From: an uncultured Spirochaetia bacterium
Lineage (GTDB): Bacteria; Spirochaetota; Spirochaetia; CAKZLE01
Length of the DNA: 64,000 bases
NCBI GenBank assembly: GCA_937125225.1
Contig: CAKZLE010000024.1
Coordinates: 113,532-177,531 of the forward strand
Direction: 5' to 3'
The position numbers and the translations under genes were made by a program. Below, piece after piece: positions 2,382 to 14,285 of the stretch (position 1 is the first letter of the stretch; each line of letters begins with the position of its first letter). The notes beneath the pieces are model-generated. The model did not search any database, was not told the DNA's origin, and saw only the letters and a list, made by a program, of their open reading frames with translations.

Positions 2382-3539
2382 TCAATCGAATAGTTCTGAA
2401 GATGCCTCATTCTCTTGTGGGGGAGTTTTATCGATCGGCTCTACTATGAGAGGTTCGACTATCTTCTGGGATGAGTCTTCTAGGACTGCTGCTGCCTTCG
2501 TATTTGAGGAGTCTCCTAAGATGTTCTCCATCTCGATCACATTCTCTCCCTCTTTCATCAACTCTACTTGGGTCTCATTATTGGAGTTGATCACTTCGAA
2601 GAAGTTCTTAGGCAGGGTATAGTCATCGAGATTGAAGGTCAGCACCTGCTCTTCGACTGCTATGGTTTGTGTATGATTGAATATCTCCTGTTCAAAGGCC
2701 TTCGCAGCCTCCTCATCGACTTCTAGGGTATTGTTCTTCATATACTTCTCTGAGAGGATCGCTGCATTCTGAACGAAGAGTTCAGTGATCATCTCGATAT
2801 TGAGCAGTCTGTTTCCAAGCCCTAGAACGAATCGAGGTTCGATAAAATCTTTCTGTAACCCCTCTTGTTGAACTTGATCCATCCTCTTGATGACATCCTC
2901 TTTATTGAGAGCTATCCCGTTCTTGATCGTTCCCTCGGGATTCAGAAATACGAAGTAGAGTTGATTCTCGATCTCCGGTCTATTCTCTGTCACTGCATTG
3001 GGGTGGAGGAGGATCACTTGGTCTCCGAGTTTCGCGGTTCTTGTGGCAAAGGTCCCAACTACCGTCCTCTCCATCTCGAGCTTTGTCGTCGCATAGACAC
3101 CACCTAGGATGATAGAGTCTCTGATCATGGCGGTATTACAGAAGATATTCCCATAGATGAAGGCATGATCGATCTTTACCTGATCAGAATAGACATCACC
3201 TTCGATTACCAAACGGGAAGAGTGATCTTTGACTGGACTTGTGACGATGAACGTCTTCTCTGCCTGTATGCAGCCCTTTATCAGGGAGGAGGCCTTCGGT
3301 GTATCAAGAGTGAAGGCGGCATGTTCTTTGATGAAGATGCTCTGTTCGAGGGTACAGGGGCCTCCTCTCATATCGAGGCTGGACCCCATGACCCCACCAC
3401 CGATAGAGCAGTCTCCTCTTAATGTGATGGTCTTCCACATCTCTATCTTCGTATCGGGGATGATATCACCGGGGAAGTGATCGTTCTCAAGGATGAATGC
3501 ATGTTTTGTATTGGTCCTGTTACCAGTTGTCTTATTCAT
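2382..3539 (-). CDS. Hypothetical protein; N-terminal half looks like a repetitive beta-helix (bactofilin-like), C-terminal half unknown and acidic
   Basis: Long ORF, third gene of the operon. The ATG at 3539 is preceded by GGGAGAG. An alternative GTG at 3545 overlaps the upstream TGA stop. Repetitive G/V/I-rich pattern: IEGDVYSDQVKIDHAFIYGNIFCNTAMIRDSIILGGVYATTKLEMERTVVGTF. The fold assignment is inference only. Confidence 0.7.
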   Translation of the reverse strand: MNKTTGNRTNTKHAFILENDHFPGDIIPDTKIEMWKTITLRGDCSIGGGVMGSSLDMRGGPCTLEQSIFIKEHAAFTLDTPKASSLIKGCIQAEKTFIVTSPVKDHSSRLVIEGDVYSDQVKIDHAFIYGNIFCNTAMIRDSIILGGVYATTKLEMERTVVGTFATRTAKLGDQVILLHPNAVTENRPEIENQLYFVFLNPEGTIKNGIALNKEDVIKRMDQVQQEGLQKDFIEPRFVLGLGNRLLNIEMITELFVQNAAILSEKYMKNNTLEVDEEAAKAFEQEIFNHTQTIAVEEQVLTFNLDDYTLPKNFFEVINSNNETQVELMKEGENVIEMENILGDSSNTKAAAVLEDSSQKIVEPLIVEPIDKTPPQENEASSELFD

Positions 3540-3541
3540 GG

Positions 3542-4483
3542 TCACTCTCCCATCTCAACAGTGAGTTCATCGATGAAGGTATCGAGTTCTTCATGCAGGG
3601 ATATCCATTTGGTATCATGCAACTGTCCTGAAGAGAACATGTTCTTCAGTGAATCCTTCATGAACCCTCTCTCCTCGGTGGTGAGTTGAGCATACCCGAT
3701 TCTCTTGGTCAATTCCTTCTTCTTAGCTCTAACCTTGTCCTGTAAGGGGTTCAATACCTTCTCAGTCTTATAATCGACTGCATGATCATGGGGAATGAAC
3801 TCTCCGGGTACGTAGTGGGCGATGACAGCATCACCATTCTCTACAAGATAGACCGGTATCTGTCTCACTTCAGGCTCTTCGACTTCATCAGGGATGACGA
3901 ATCGTTGGATCTCTTCGAAGAAGGCTCCTCTCTGTTCCGTAAAGGAGGAGATTGCCTTACAGGCATCAAACCCTCTGCTCTCGACTGCAGATGTCCTTAC
4001 AGCAGTACAGTCTAGATAGTATTTCTCAGAGGTATTGGTGACTGGTATCGCACGTGTGTTATAGGCAATAGCACTCTTGTTGTTAAAGTAGTGCTTATTG
4101 AGATTTATCACATGACCATCGAGTTTCATGATCGAGGATTCCGTATTATGGACGAGTTCCCTGTTGATCAGTTCATAACGGGATCTGATCTTGTCGAGGT
4201 CCTCCTGAAGGTTGAGTTTCTTTCGTTCTAGTTGGTCAGCCATCTCGGTGAGCAGGTTCTTGTAGCTATTGAGTTCCGAACACTTCGAGACGATCATCAT
4301 GGTCGCATTGTTCTCCATGAGTTGTGCCAAACCCGTCTCCATAGTCTCATGGATCTTCCCGAAGTATCCGATGATCTTCTGTAGGATATTGACACTCTTA
4401 CCTACATCTTCCCTGATGGGAGCTACATTAAGACTTACCTCTTTGGCAAGTCCATCTATCGCTTTGATCTCATTGAATGACAT
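3542..4483 (-). CDS. Hypothetical protein (N-terminal coiled coil plus globular C-terminal domain)
   Basis: 313-aa ORF. Its GGAGGG RBS lies inside the last codons of the upstream gene. The ATG at 4483 is 3 nt after the upstream TAG (4487-4489). No catalytic motif recognised. Confidence 0.7.
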   Translation of the reverse strand: MSFNEIKAIDGLAKEVSLNVAPIREDVGKSVNILQKIIGYFGKIHETMETGLAQLMENNATMMIVSKCSELNSYKNLLTEMADQLERKKLNLQEDLDKIRSRYELINRELVHNTESSIMKLDGHVINLNKHYFNNKSAIAYNTRAIPVTNTSEKYYLDCTAVRTSAVESRGFDACKAISSFTEQRGAFFEEIQRFVIPDEVEEPEVRQIPVYLVENGDAVIAHYVPGEFIPHDHAVDYKTEKVLNPLQDKVRAKKKELTKRIGYAQLTTEERGFMKDSLKNMFSSGQLHDTKWISLHEELDTFIDELTVEMGE

Positions 4484-4486
4484 GTG

Positions 4487-6670
4487 CTAAGCCCTCCCTT
4501 CTTCAGTCTTATCTTCTTCAGTGATCAGGTCCTTGAAGACCCAGAAGTCGTGTTCGATCGCCTTATCGATCTCAAAACCAGGATGCTCTTCAAGATCGGT
4601 CTGTCTTTCACCTGAAAGGTCCAATGCTCCGGCGACAGGTTCGATAGCTTGATCGGATTCTGCGATCCTTACCATCTGGGCTGCGGCCTTGACGAATTTA
4701 GTAGTCAGCTCAACCTGTTCGACCGAACTCTCTTTGAGCTCTTCTAGCTGTTTGAGTGTCTCCTGTTGTACACGATCTCTTTCGAGATCTTCGATCTTCT
4801 CCTGATAAGAGAGCTTCTGCAATGTTGCATGAGTCTGGTTTCTCAACTCAGCGACATCATTTCTTACCTGCTCTACAATCGCATTGTTCTCTGTGATGAT
4901 ATCTTTCTCTACAGAATGGGCATAGTCTTTGACAGAGTTCAGTCTGTTCTCAGCTACAGCATTGATCTTGATCATCAGAGACTCCATCGACTCGATGACA
5001 TCTCCGATACTCTCGACTTGCGCTCTCATCGTCTGGATAGAGAGTACCTGAGAGTCGATCTCTCTACGATTGTCTCTCTCTATCTCATCCCTCTCTTTCT
5101 CATATGCTTGACGATAGTCGATCTTCTTCACATTGAGTTTAGAGTAGACCCTAATCCTCTCTTTCTCATTCTCCTGCAGCAGATAGTTATAGGCAGGCAT
5201 GAATACTGAGGAAAAGAGCTTGTGTACGGGTATAGGGTGGCGAGTCTCTCTTTCACAGAGATTGCATTTCCATACATCCTCCTTCCAGTCCTTGAGGTAG
5301 ACTCTCGCATGTTCATTCCAGGTGATCGGATCGGTGGTTCCCTCTTTGAGGGCGTTGAAGTCCTGACCAAGCAGTTTCTCGATATCCTTCTCATGACAGT
5401 AGGGACAGTAGAAGTTGTAGGCCCCGAAGTGCATGATATCTGATAGTCTCGGTTCTATGGTGGCCACCACATTCTTCACACTATGATTTCTCAGAAGGCT
5501 GATCTTGGCCATATCTTTGAGTACTTTCTTGATCACATCATCGGAGAATTCATCAACACTCCAAGAGTTCTTCTGAAGTGAGGACTCGACCTCTTCGACG
5601 ATTGACTCTTCTACGACCTCTTTAGATATATCTACGACTGGAGTCTCTATCTGCTCTTCTCTGTCAGAAGTCTCTTCAGAACTCTGTTTTTCTAGGATCT
5701 CATCACTTTCATCTAACGTGATGGTGATCTCAGAGGCTCCCTCGATCTCAGCTACAGTGGTAGCTTCAAGTTCCTGCTCTAAGGTCACAGCTTCCTCTTC
5801 TGCTATGACCGGGAGTTCTTCAGCAAGGGTTCCAACCATCTTATCCCATTTGATTCCCTGGATCTTCTCAAGCTTCTCTCTGATGAGATCTGTGTCTATA
5901 TAGGCAGACCTCTTACGGTCATAATCACTCTTTGCTATGAAATCGGTAATATCTTCAGTGTTCTCCATGATCCCCATGTCGATGGTTGCGAACTCTCTAG
6001 CTTTGAAGGCCTTTTCTATCTCTGCATAGAGTTCATGTAAAGTAGTCTCTGTATCATACAGGCAAGACTCCTCGACATTGAGTTCTTTCGGTATCTCTAC
6101 GATCGACTTATTGACAGAGGCTAGGACTGCTGGTAGATTCTGGATCTTCTCTATATAGGAGTCCCAGAGTCTTTGAACTTCATCAGCATCATCAAGATAG
6201 GGGCATGTGACATGTTCCAAGGGGAACAGACCATCCTCATCTATGATCAGAGAGCCATCACCGAATGGGTATTGGGTGAAGTTGACCACTGACTTTCCGA
6301 TCCTTGTTACCGGAGCGCTGAACTTCATCTTCTTCAACCTGCTTCGTTTTCGCAGACCTGCGATCAGTAGGATGAGCCATAGGATGGAGGGAGCGTAGAA
6401 CAGGTAGGGAAAGGTCACTCCAACCTGAGGAAGATATTCGAGGAGGAAATCAGCGACATACCCCTGTAGTAGTGGGACGATGAGACTTGCCTGTAGGACA
6501 AGGAAGAACCCCGTGAAGATGAGATTCCAGGTCATCTTCTTCTTTAGGCGTATCTTCTCATCTACATAACGTCTGAAATCTGGAAGGACCTGCCTGAGCA
6601 GTATGATGAGGAACTCATCATAGGAACTTTTCTTCTGGGAGTCAAAACCTTGAATCTTGAATGCATCCAT
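4487..6670 (-). CDS. Hypothetical membrane-anchored protein: 2 N-terminal TM helices, Glu-rich linker, CxxC-x43-CxxC zinc-ribbon-like motif, long C-terminal coiled coil
   Basis: 727-aa ORF. Hydrophobic stretches: WNLIFTGFFLVLQASLIVPLL and YAPSILWLILLIAGL. Cysteine motifs: CPYC...CNLC. The C-terminal roughly 200 aa are rich in heptad-like E/K/L/Q. No Walker or nuclease motifs seen. Confidence 0.7.
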   Translation of the reverse strand: MDAFKIQGFDSQKKSSYDEFLIILLRQVLPDFRRYVDEKIRLKKKMTWNLIFTGFFLVLQASLIVPLLQGYVADFLLEYLPQVGVTFPYLFYAPSILWLILLIAGLRKRSRLKKMKFSAPVTRIGKSVVNFTQYPFGDGSLIIDEDGLFPLEHVTCPYLDDADEVQRLWDSYIEKIQNLPAVLASVNKSIVEIPKELNVEESCLYDTETTLHELYAEIEKAFKAREFATIDMGIMENTEDITDFIAKSDYDRKRSAYIDTDLIREKLEKIQGIKWDKMVGTLAEELPVIAEEEAVTLEQELEATTVAEIEGASEITITLDESDEILEKQSSEETSDREEQIETPVVDISKEVVEESIVEEVESSLQKNSWSVDEFSDDVIKKVLKDMAKISLLRNHSVKNVVATIEPRLSDIMHFGAYNFYCPYCHEKDIEKLLGQDFNALKEGTTDPITWNEHARVYLKDWKEDVWKCNLCERETRHPIPVHKLFSSVFMPAYNYLLQENEKERIRVYSKLNVKKIDYRQAYEKERDEIERDNRREIDSQVLSIQTMRAQVESIGDVIESMESLMIKINAVAENRLNSVKDYAHSVEKDIITENNAIVEQVRNDVAELRNQTHATLQKLSYQEKIEDLERDRVQQETLKQLEELKESSVEQVELTTKFVKAAAQMVRIAESDQAIEPVAGALDLSGERQTDLEEHPGFEIDKAIEHDFWVFKDLITEEDKTEEGRA

Positions 6671-6736
6671 ACCTCATATCCCCTAAAATGAATTGTTACA
6701 TGAAGTTGAATAAGGCAAGTAAGTAGATATAAGTAT

Positions 6737-6766
6737 ATCATAGAGTCTTAGAGAATGGTAAATCAA
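6737..6766 (-). promoter_or_regulatory. Putative sigma70-type promoter of the three-gene operon
   Basis: On the minus strand: TTGATT (6766-6761), an 18-nt spacer, then TATGAT (6742-6737), about 65 nt upstream of the ATG at 6670. Confidence 0.3.
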
Positions 6767-12476: not shown

Positions 12477-14138
12477 CTAGGACTCAGTCAGGCTCTTTCC
12501 CATTCGCCAACGAGAGAAACGTGTCAGGATATAGTTGGTGATCTCGCTTGGATGGTCGAGAACTTGTGAGGTATTTCCTGATCTTATATAAAACTTCTCT
12601 ACAGGGCCTCCACTCTTTGCCTTGAGGGTAGTGAACAGTGGCTGCCGACCACGACGGATCCTGATACGGCAGATCTCCTTATCTGATAGCCTAGGGAAAT
12701 CGATGGTCAAAGCTTTTGAGGTATAGCCTATACCATATTTCGCCCCGAACAGATTTCTCAGATGAATCTCATAATAGTCTTTACCAGGCTGCTTCAAGAC
12801 AGCATAATCCTTCTCGATCCCGAGAATCTTCCCATCATCAGCGACACCAATGAGAAGGGTCCCCCCTTGAGCATTGTTAAAGGCTGCAATCGATTTCACG
12901 ATGACATCCTCGAGATTCTTATTGAACTCATCTTCTCGGTAATCCCATCTCAGAGATGATTTGAACTCGAGGTTCGCAGATTCTCCCTGTGCGATCTCCT
13001 TGGTGAGCATCTCCTCGATACGGTCGACAGAACGGGTGACCTCCCGGAAATCGATTATCAGACGGTATCCGAGGAATATCGATGCACCGAAGATCATGAG
13101 AAGGACTACCTGGAGGGGAATAGAGAACCGGAAAGTCCAGAGAGATTCTGCCGGTACGAGTGTCCCGATCATGAGCGAATCGGTACCGAACCCGATCTGG
13201 TGAAATTCTGTTAGCCATTCGTTCTCAGAAGTCTCGAAACGAAACAGGATCTTATCGGTCTTGGCTTCAGTGATCTTCTGTTCAAGTTGTGCAATGAGTT
13301 CATTTGCACTGTCATCGAGAGGAGTACTCGAGGGTAGGATCTCACCATTGCTCTCTGATAGGGCAAGAAGGTCATCGAGTGGAAGAAACAGGTGATCTTC
13401 ACCTGATGGCATCAGTAGGAAGATAAGCGTCCCTTCAACCGCTCCCCCCTCTTTGAGTCTCTCTGCCATCAGATTGAAGGAGAGGTCTATAGAGAGGTTC
13501 ACCTCTCTATTCCCGTATTGGGAGGAGGGTAGAAGCGTGAGGGTTATTCCCTGTTCTTCAGAAACCGGGAGGGTGTATTCAGAGCTTATGCGAAGACCTG
13601 GTTCTGAGGTTGACTCAAATGAGTTCTCTGTCTGTCCACTATCGTTGGACAGATAACTGATTCCGCTTGATGCTCTTTTAGAGGTGAGAGATCGATCATG
13701 AGTCTCTTCTGTAACATACCAATCAGAGCTGTCCTCATGGGGATAGGTCATGACAAGTTCTTTGTAGTCAGCGTCGGTCAAACTCAGTGAGGAGACCGAA
13801 CCTAACGATCTTATCCTTGTCTGAAGGAGGTCCATGTAGTCTTCAGGATTACCGATCGAGTCGATCTCTCCTATACTGCCCCAGAGGACCGAAGAGAAGA
13901 TGATATCGATCAAAGGATTGAAATAATCATCCACTGATTCGACTGTTCTTGTGGACGCTAGTTCAAAGGCATTCTCATCGAGATCCTGTCTCAGATCAGA
14001 ATACCGGTAGATCCATACAAGTAGAGAGCTCGATACGATGATCAGTAGTAGAGGGAAGAGCCTTAAGAGGAACTGCCTGATCTGTGCAGGTCTTTGTTTA
14101 TTCCATCTGTATCGTGCGGATCGAGTTGTATGTTTCAT
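12477..14138 (-). CDS. Membrane-anchored protein with a 2-TM sensor-like topology and a C-terminal AlbA_2 (Schlafen-like, divergent-AAA) domain
   Basis: TM1 is FLLRLFPLLLIIVSSSLLVWIY. An extracytoplasmic region of about 290 aa follows, then TM2 IPLQVVLLMIFGASIFLGYRLII. The cytoplasmic part has ESANLEFKSSLRWDY...IAAFNNAQGGTLLIGVADDGKILGI, typical of AlbA_2. The start is uncertain: ATG 14138 or TTG 14195. Neither has a clear RBS. Confidence 0.7.
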   Translation of the reverse strand: MKHTTRSARYRWNKQRPAQIRQFLLRLFPLLLIIVSSSLLVWIYRYSDLRQDLDENAFELASTRTVESVDDYFNPLIDIIFSSVLWGSIGEIDSIGNPEDYMDLLQTRIRSLGSVSSLSLTDADYKELVMTYPHEDSSDWYVTEETHDRSLTSKRASSGISYLSNDSGQTENSFESTSEPGLRISSEYTLPVSEEQGITLTLLPSSQYGNREVNLSIDLSFNLMAERLKEGGAVEGTLIFLLMPSGEDHLFLPLDDLLALSESNGEILPSSTPLDDSANELIAQLEQKITEAKTDKILFRFETSENEWLTEFHQIGFGTDSLMIGTLVPAESLWTFRFSIPLQVVLLMIFGASIFLGYRLIIDFREVTRSVDRIEEMLTKEIAQGESANLEFKSSLRWDYREDEFNKNLEDVIVKSIAAFNNAQGGTLLIGVADDGKILGIEKDYAVLKQPGKDYYEIHLRNLFGAKYGIGYTSKALTIDFPRLSDKEICRIRIRRGRQPLFTTLKAKSGGPVEKFYIRSGNTSQVLDHPSEITNYILTRFSRWRMGKSLTES

Positions 14139-14285
14139 AGCGTAAGTATAACTATTATCAGATTCCTTGTCAGCTATTTCGGAGGAGGAAGGCAAGCTAG
14201 GTAAACAGCTACTACAGGGTCGATTCAGTGCATAGTGGCTAAGTCTTTGGCCTCACTCGAAAGCGCTCGAGCAAGAACAATCAGA

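Follow-up and report, generated by a model that had tools for sequence, protein, structure and literature searches.

Bactofilins are DUF583 β-helical domain proteins with a right-handed core, which polymerise without cofactors by head-to-head/tail-to-tail contacts to give protofilaments; they are membrane-associated, act through their terminal tails, and serve as scaffolds in spirochaetes, the phylum of the genome considered here (PMC13393453). We analysed a 64,000-nt window (i.e. the whole stretch of DNA) from an uncultured Spirochaetia bacterium (contig CAKZLE010000024.1, positions 113,532 to 177,531), focusing on a trio of tightly packed minus-strand open reading frames (ORFs), A, B and C, that span positions 2382-6670. 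Like the bactofilins (PF04519/DUF583; BacA/BacB, CcmA, BbbF/BbbG), protein C appears to have a β-only core of ~115-165 residues flanked by N- and C-terminal extensions, but it differs from them in carrying a conserved ~100-residue helical domain and in always being encoded together with the partners A and B. To our knowledge, no described bactofilin system has partners of the A or B type, and we found no published description of such a three-gene system in the literature.

The other comparisons that can be made are with protein A. Membrane-anchored landmark or division proteins of the TipN, EzrA and ZapG/YhcB type resemble it in combining N-terminal transmembrane (TM) helices with a long cytoplasmic coiled coil, and one A-family member weakly matched a ZapG-like model; however, these proteins show no sequence homology to A and lack both its four-Cys domain and its second conserved globular domain. 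LmuB of Lamassu and JetC of Wadjet, which are SMC-like defence proteins with coiled coils, and the archaeal ASRP proteins share with A a long helical region and scattered matches within the A family, whereas A has no P-loop or SMC family match, and B and C have no similarity to Lmu proteins, so that partners like LmuA or LmuC are missing. Finally, abortive-infection modules with TM effectors, e.g. the 2TM/4TM effectors of cyclic-oligonucleotide-based anti-phage signalling systems (CBASS), retron effectors and KwaA of Kiwa, are likewise small, patchily distributed operons in which the largest protein starts with TM segments. The trio differs from these in having neither PADLOC homology nor a signalling-enzyme or nuclease partner, and in its mostly housekeeping context.

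Distribution and conservation of the three genes

A word-indexed search of 5.8 billion proteins returned, among the matches listed, only two copies from sister species, one in an uncultured Spirochaetales metagenome-assembled genome (MAG) and one in a 4.3-Mb Spirochaetia MAG, both with the order nitroreductase-A-B-C; scanning genome contigs for exact N-terminal peptides found only the same two MAGs. The wider family was sought by an exhaustive phmmer search with residues 111-520 of A (the part that is not coiled coil) against 1.84 billion cluster representatives (50% identity). The 130 clusters found at E<1e-3, 100 of which had E<1e-10, are mostly of 550-850 amino acids (aa). The best match covered residues ~360-520 of A and lay mid-protein in the targets, and many targets also matched residues 111-290. 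Nearly all members have TM segments at ~40-105 and the motif CPxC-x42-46-CxxC at ~300-400, giving a common architecture of an N-in/C-in TM hairpin, a conserved domain, the four-Cys motif and a long amphipathic helix. All are called 'hypothetical protein' in their sources, and the organisms named are Spirochaetota and Longimicrobiales.

Synteny was assessed in 17 non-redundant loci, with enough downstream DNA for B in 16 and for a complete C in 15. In every locus with sufficient DNA a B-like gene (301-322 aa) and then a C-like gene (317-385 aa) come after the A-like gene (604-854 aa) and share its strand, with intergenic gaps of -32 to +131 nt, in DNA ranging from 35 to 68% in G+C content (GC) and including both Spirochaetota and Gemmatimonadota. 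Locus-wide iteration of hidden Markov models recovered all of the B-like and C-like genes, and hhalign aligned the distant proteins with those of the window at probabilities of 68-90% for B (at equivalent positions) and of 99.4% and 97.3% for C. An all-against-all comparison of the flanks showed that no gene other than A, B and C recurs. The autonomous three-gene unit proposed from a single sequence is thus conserved in synteny across distant lineages (16/16 loci with enough flank).

The three families also evolve together. The pairwise distances of A, B and C correlate with r of 0.93-0.96 (Mantel 0/2000), and with r of 0.85-0.93 when close relatives are omitted. Among the three Spirochaetia species, the ratio of nonsynonymous to synonymous rates (dN/dS) is 0.04-0.15, with dS at or beyond saturation, and A, B and C have gathered fewer amino-acid changes than the adjacent nitroreductase, i.e. 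the trio is under strong purifying selection. Synteny around it is stable across the same three species, its GC, third-position GC (GC3) and codon usage are typical of the window and host, and it has no paralogues within the window. The trio is therefore a real, autonomous and co-inherited module of three uncurated families, and this strictly conserved, co-evolving operon spans lineages as distant as Spirochaetota and Gemmatimonadota.

Searches of curated collections left the three proteins without a name. A and C of the window gave nothing significant in Pfam, NCBIfam, PADLOC or PHROGs, and B gave only noise of the coiled-coil type. The PDB sequences contained no match to A, B or C by phmmer or by hmmsearch with profiles of 3, 13 and 23 sequences. 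In profile scans the window proteins matched no Walker, nuclease or protease family, and no enzymatic family was found among these and 74 A-family, 13 B and 13 C members; the A family likewise had no Pfam or NCBIfam match beyond scattered noise. Some A-family members did match models of coiled-coil proteins, i.e. PADLOC LmuB (13/74 members, best E 1.3e-9) and NCBIfam ASRP (6/74), neither of which matched A of the window, with scattered PADLOC JetC and ZorA matches in a minority. As the A family has no ATPase head, the LmuB and ASRP matches are attributed to the long helix. The trio is thus a well-defined piece of functional dark matter that lends itself to experiment, with all three families missing from Pfam, NCBIfam, PADLOC, PHROGs and the PDB.

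Features of the three proteins

Hydropathy places two hydrophobic helices at about residues 47-69 and 83-106 of protein A, with seven Lys/Arg residues before them, none in the 13-residue loop and nine after. This pattern predicts an N-in/C-in TM hairpin, with residues 107-727 in the cytoplasm. A conserved cytoplasmic domain (~111-290) is followed by a linker of variable length (291-365, 31% Glu), and then by a four-Cys domain (~366-520), which hardly varies between the three closest species and carries CPYC (422-425) and CNLC (469-472), 43 residues apart. Amphipathic helical periodicity extends over residues 505-672, and AlphaFold2 draws 519-665 as a single helix with a predicted local confidence (pLDDT) of up to 86; the protein ends in a conserved tail. 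The AlphaFold2 models of A and C were each built on 3-sequence alignments and have an overall pLDDT of 44, and the predicted template-modelling score of the A model is 0.22.

In an alignment of 113 A-family sequences, C422, C425, C469, C472, L497 and R505 are invariant, and P180, E208, Y421, P423, W467, P479, H483, P492 and E500 are conserved in at least 90%. The two CxxC pairs are kept throughout the family with a spacing of x42-46, as expected of a generic zinc ribbon, and the four-Cys domain is accordingly described here as a putative domain of the zinc-ribbon type; no Pfam zinc-ribbon model matched the A family, save for one member that matched zf-Sec23_Sec24 (E 6e-4). Judged by eye, the Cys/His motifs do not have the spacing for an HNH-like or HEPN-like reading, and these were set aside. 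Spirochaetes have a cytoplasmic filament protein, CfpA, and this was also considered as a relative of A and rejected, since A matched no NCBIfam family; the presence of a CfpA model in that collection is unconfirmed.

Two side observations concern the A gene and its family. The public gene call of A on the source contig (P0001) is a 613-aa protein starting at Met115, and so has lost the TM hairpin (window 6329-6670); the 727-aa form is the correct one because the family alignment includes the hairpin. Several A-family members (e.g. L009 5620-7716 and L013 932-2791) contain tandem ~13-residue repeats, G[FL]xxV[TS]xAVxxxT, which precede a conserved GNAIxAAxA motif near the C-terminus. A of the window is without these repeats and retains only a motif of the PVAGALDL type.

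Periodicity indicates that the first ~135-140 residues of protein B are strongly helical or coiled coil, and a mixed C-terminal domain follows. R102, Y103, D122, H124, R163 and G227 are invariant in the family alignment. Homology between B and the coiled coil of A was rejected (hhalign probability 6%), as was a relationship to PADLOC PDC-M09B, which B of the window matched with an E of 0.0045 but which was matched by just 2/13 B members.

The N-terminal ~185 residues of protein C are predicted to form a β-solenoid-like region with a YGN motif and an invariant G130; beyond it lie a conserved helical region of ~100 residues and then an acidic, variable tail. AlphaFold2 modelled residues 70-185 as all-β with a pLDDT of 62-82. 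The Foldseek neighbours of this model in the PDB are nearly all β-helix proteins (tapirin, left-handed β-helix (LbH) acyltransferases, CAP/CARP, SufD, autotransporters and ice-binding proteins), none of them significant (all E>0.5), and the hydropathy profile shows no significant long-period repeat, only a β-type period of 2. The Pfam Bactofilin model (PF04519, gathering score 27.9 bits) matched 4/13 C homologues at 25.2, 18.5, 16.7 and 13.8 bits (E 1.9e-5 to 0.07), and did not match C of the window at E<=1; LbH and Hexapep matches among C members were weak and far under their cut-offs. The Bactofilin matches fall on different turns, which indicates a generic solenoid similarity, and taken together the sequence evidence supports a bactofilin-like solenoid fold for C rather than membership of the Bactofilin family.

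Most of what the sequence-only reading had said of the proteins was borne out. All of the features it listed for A were found (two hydrophobic helices, a Glu-rich linker, CPYC-x43-CNLC and a long helical stretch), the start of B, which it had read as a coiled coil, is strongly helical or coiled coil, and its likening of C to a bactofilin-type β-helix agrees with the all-β model core, the non-significant β-helix neighbours and the sub-threshold Bactofilin matches. Its failure to see a Walker, nuclease or protease motif or to place the proteins in a named family was matched by profile scans that gave no confident match. The label 'non-enzymatic' reflects only that no enzyme family was detected, and A, B and C each carry invariant polar residues. 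The same reading had specified beforehand that membership of known families, separate occurrence of the genes or the lack of a β-helix in C would undo its proposal, and none of these was found.

Genomic contexts and possible functions

The neighbourhoods of the trio are mostly housekeeping (L006, L012, L018, L020, L021 and L022), in a sample of 17 loci that is too small for enrichment statistics. The neighbours include rpsB-tsf-pyrH-frr in L018, mnmE-yidC-yidD in L022, Lon in L021 and phoH/asnB in L012. In L020 (8328-16069) the trio lies between the flavoprotein and Fe-S/CCG subunit genes of an sdh/frd-type cluster. Here the stop of the flavoprotein gene overlaps the beginning of A, and the arrangement resembles a cassette set into an operon. 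Two loci have defence-flavoured neighbours, i.e. Band_7/zinc-ribbon, Pkinase, Peptidase_U49 (Lit-type) and CHAT-TPR genes in L019, and PemK/RHH and SNF2 genes in L008. The sequence-only reading had asked whether the trio sits in defence islands; in this small sample the loci lie mostly outside them, and besides L019 and L008 only the window and L001 have neighbours of a weakly defence-like kind. As a separate observation, both L019 (15658-16755) and L022 (5039-6571) carry a gene for a Ser/Thr protein kinase a short distance downstream of the trio. The L019 kinase gene comes after that of an extra TPR protein and precedes the Peptidase_U49 and CHAT-TPR genes; when all flanking proteins were compared with each other, the two kinases were not grouped together.

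One context is of a different kind. L013 (Ga0172367_10027484, 5,079 bp) and L014 (Ga0172369_10026775, 5,087 bp) come from two samples, were independently assembled and are 99.97% identical, each being a circular permutation of the other. Their ends overlap by 115 and 123 bp, respectively, which in both cases implies a circle of 4,964 bp. Besides the trio (78% of its length), the circle contains ~0.5 kb of AT-rich non-coding DNA and a single ORF of ~200 aa that has a lipoprotein-type signal (…LAC); there is no further convincing ORF. Its four ORFs gave no match to the replication-initiator families of Pfam, and neither iterons nor an obvious origin are evident in it. The three contigs known to carry its A protein are all <=5.1 kb long. 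The unit of 4,964 bp is either a circular replicon or a collapsed tandem repeat.

We tentatively favour the reading in which the trio is a membrane-attached scaffold complex that positions or organises some other cellular component. A, B and C would form one co-inherited, probably stoichiometric cytoplasmic complex hanging from the inner face of the membrane. A would be inserted as an N-in/C-in hairpin, with its conserved domain, acidic linker, four-Cys domain and amphipathic helix of ~150 residues in the cytoplasm; the helical N-terminal part of B would most likely pair with the long helix of A; and the β-solenoid of C would most likely self-associate into a polymer or sheet, which A and B would tether to the membrane. 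In favour of this reading count the conserved order, tight spacing and co-evolution of the trio, its purifying selection and host-like composition, its stable synteny and mostly housekeeping neighbourhoods, the charge pattern around the hairpin of A, the helices of A and B, the all-β model core of C with its sub-threshold Bactofilin matches, the lack of any enzymatic family match, and the use of bactofilin polymers as membrane-associated scaffolds. If true, it would add to bacterial cell biology a new mode of anchoring a bactofilin-like polymer at the membrane.

Several observations weigh against the scaffold reading. The A family is very rare and patchy, with 130 clusters of 1-5 members each in the 1.84 billion representatives, which would be unusual for a core cell-biological scaffold, and the comparison of flanks revealed no client protein or enzyme co-conserved with the trio. 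A and B have invariant polar residues that may belong to an active site not yet recognised. The C model is of low confidence overall, and no C member reaches the Bactofilin gathering score (the best has 25.2 of the 27.9 bits). Lastly, one copy of the trio fills the circular 4,964-bp contig, a setting better suited to an accessory or mobile function.

A first alternative is that the trio is a conflict module (an anti-phage/abortive-infection system or an addiction cassette). A would then sit in the membrane as an effector or sensor, and its hairpin would perturb the membrane once B/C detect an invader or are lost. TM helices at the N-terminus are common in abortive-infection effectors. A compact, autonomous operon with a sparse and patchy occurrence across phyla would fit such a module, as would its 78% share of the circle, the defence-type neighbours in L019 and L008, a MazE-type gene near the trio in L001, a Schlafen/AlbA_2 gene ~6 kb away in the window, and the cassette-like insertion into the sdh/frd operon of L020. 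However, the window proteins have no significant match in PADLOC (for A and C, no match of any kind to the known or candidate anti-phage systems of PADLOC-DB v2.0), and the LmuB, JetC, ZorA and PDC-M09B matches look like coiled-coil noise. No nucleoside triphosphatase, nuclease, protease, TIR or SIR2 domain is present, and the neighbourhoods are mostly housekeeping. Relatives were not found in mobile-element collections, i.e. by tblastn against INPHARED phages (B and C) and PLSDB plasmids (A 111-520, B and C), by three scans of IMG/VR viral contigs, or in PHROGs. The strong purifying selection, the synteny that is stable over saturated dS and the host-like codon usage also count against it. 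We regard a conflict module as a serious rival, only somewhat less probable than the scaffold; if true, it would be a new membrane-acting conflict system.

It is improbable that the trio is an unrecognised enzyme complex, in which the invariant polar residues would form a novel membrane active site and the solenoid would be substrate-binding or transferase-like, as in LbH enzymes. What such a complex would explain is the set of invariant or near-invariant residues (E208, H483, E500 and R505 in A, R102, Y103, D122, H124 and R163 in B, and D215 in C), i.e. charged and aromatic residues that are kept at an overall identity of 15-20%; the LbH acyltransferases among the Foldseek neighbours of C, its weak LbH/Hexapep matches and the embedding of the L020 trio in a respiratory enzyme operon would also agree with it. 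Yet no profile or PDB match links any of the proteins to an enzyme family, the LbH and Hexapep scores are far under the cut-offs, and no metabolic neighbour is co-conserved.

The circle raises a further alternative, which we consider very improbable: the trio might be the maintenance module of a small mobile replicon, anchoring, segregating or replicating a minimal circle. The zinc-ribbon domain would sit on DNA and the polymer would serve as a track for segregation; copies in chromosomes would be integrated or domesticated ones. Both L013 and L014 imply the same circle, which holds just the trio, the lipoprotein-like ORF and AT-rich non-coding DNA, with no Pfam replication-initiator match, and no contig for its A protein is larger than 5.1 kb. 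Against this, it is a single circle among 17 loci, the others being chromosomal with housekeeping flanks and without an integrase or transposase; it lacks iterons or an obvious origin; a circular assembly graph can arise from tandem duplication; the plasmids in PLSDB gave no match; and DNA binding by the trio proteins is without support. If the circle were the key to the trio, the three genes would be the payload of an unusual minimal circular element. The least probable proposal is that the trio is a new, self-sufficient, polymer-based membrane machine forming the maintenance or propagation core of ~5 kb circles without a recognisable initiator; unrelated bacteria, this spirochaete among them, would have captured it repeatedly and domesticated it in their chromosomes. 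For experiments, the 4,964-bp circle offers a natural minimal construct, and the family alignments and invariant residues provide further immediate handles.

Layout of the operon and adjacent features

The coordinates of the three genes and of the putative signals around them are given in the table below.

Genes and putative signals of the A-B-C operon (window positions)
Feature	Position	Strand	Details
Gene A	4487-6670	minus	727 aa; ORF
Gene B	3542-4483	minus	313 aa; ORF
Gene C	2382-3539	minus	385 aa; ATG start favoured by homologues
Terminator-like hairpin	2321-2350	minus	13 pairs, 7 G-C, then TTTTTCTCTCT; 32 nt past C stop
Putative promoter	6737-6766	minus	sigma-70-like TTGATT-18-TATGAT, 9/12 matches
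Ribosome-binding region of A	6671-6690	minus	AGGGGA...GAGGT before ATG; read from sequence

The three packed minus-strand ORFs that the sequence-only reading had described are all present in the ORF list. The 3-nt gap that it gave between A and B is correct (the TAG stop of A, CAC, then the ATG of B), but the stop/start overlap that it gave between B and C is not. That overlap (GTGA) needs the GTG at 3545 from which the ORF list started C (2382-3545). The homologues all begin with MNKT or MSQP and none uses this GTG, so C is taken to start at the ATG at 3539, which lies 2 nt beyond the TGA of B. Each downstream ribosome-binding site (RBS) does lie within the preceding gene, as had been claimed, with the RBS-like sequences GGGAGGG in the 3' end of A (for B) and GGGAGAG in B (for C).

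The signals outside the genes fared less well. The hexamers of the promoter that the operon was said to have of its own are present, in the 128-nt gap separating the upstream nitroreductase gene from A, but promoter-like sites in the region are no more frequent than in shuffled sequences (7 found versus 7.7 expected) and the site is therefore a consensus match only. Similarly, of what had been called a strong bidirectional terminator, a strong hairpin with its T-run was verified for the minus strand, and the plus strand gave no terminator score. The rpiB gene, which converges on the trio, has a hairpin of its own at 2040-2068.

Just past the trio terminator and before that of rpiB, the minus strand carries a 25-codon ORF (MNKKLTLSIEEELIDFARSYSKTTK, window ~2066-2143) with its own GAGG RBS, which reads like a truncated N-terminus of the ribbon-helix-helix/antitoxin type. 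On the other side, ~6 kb upstream of the trio, a minus-strand gene (12477-14195) encodes a 572-aa protein with a Schlafen/AlbA_2 domain (Pfam), and in the sister genome L001 a MazE-type antitoxin gene lies between the hydrolase and nitroreductase genes, two genes upstream of the trio. Convergent with the trio, on the plus strand at 270-2016, a gene for a RuBisCO-like protein (form IV-type, 429 aa) is followed, after 1 nt, by that of an RpiB-type sugar-phosphate isomerase. On the source contig this pair lies within a sugar ABC-transporter/aldolase cluster, and the GC3 of the RuBisCO-like gene is notably low (0.33 versus a window mean of 0.51).

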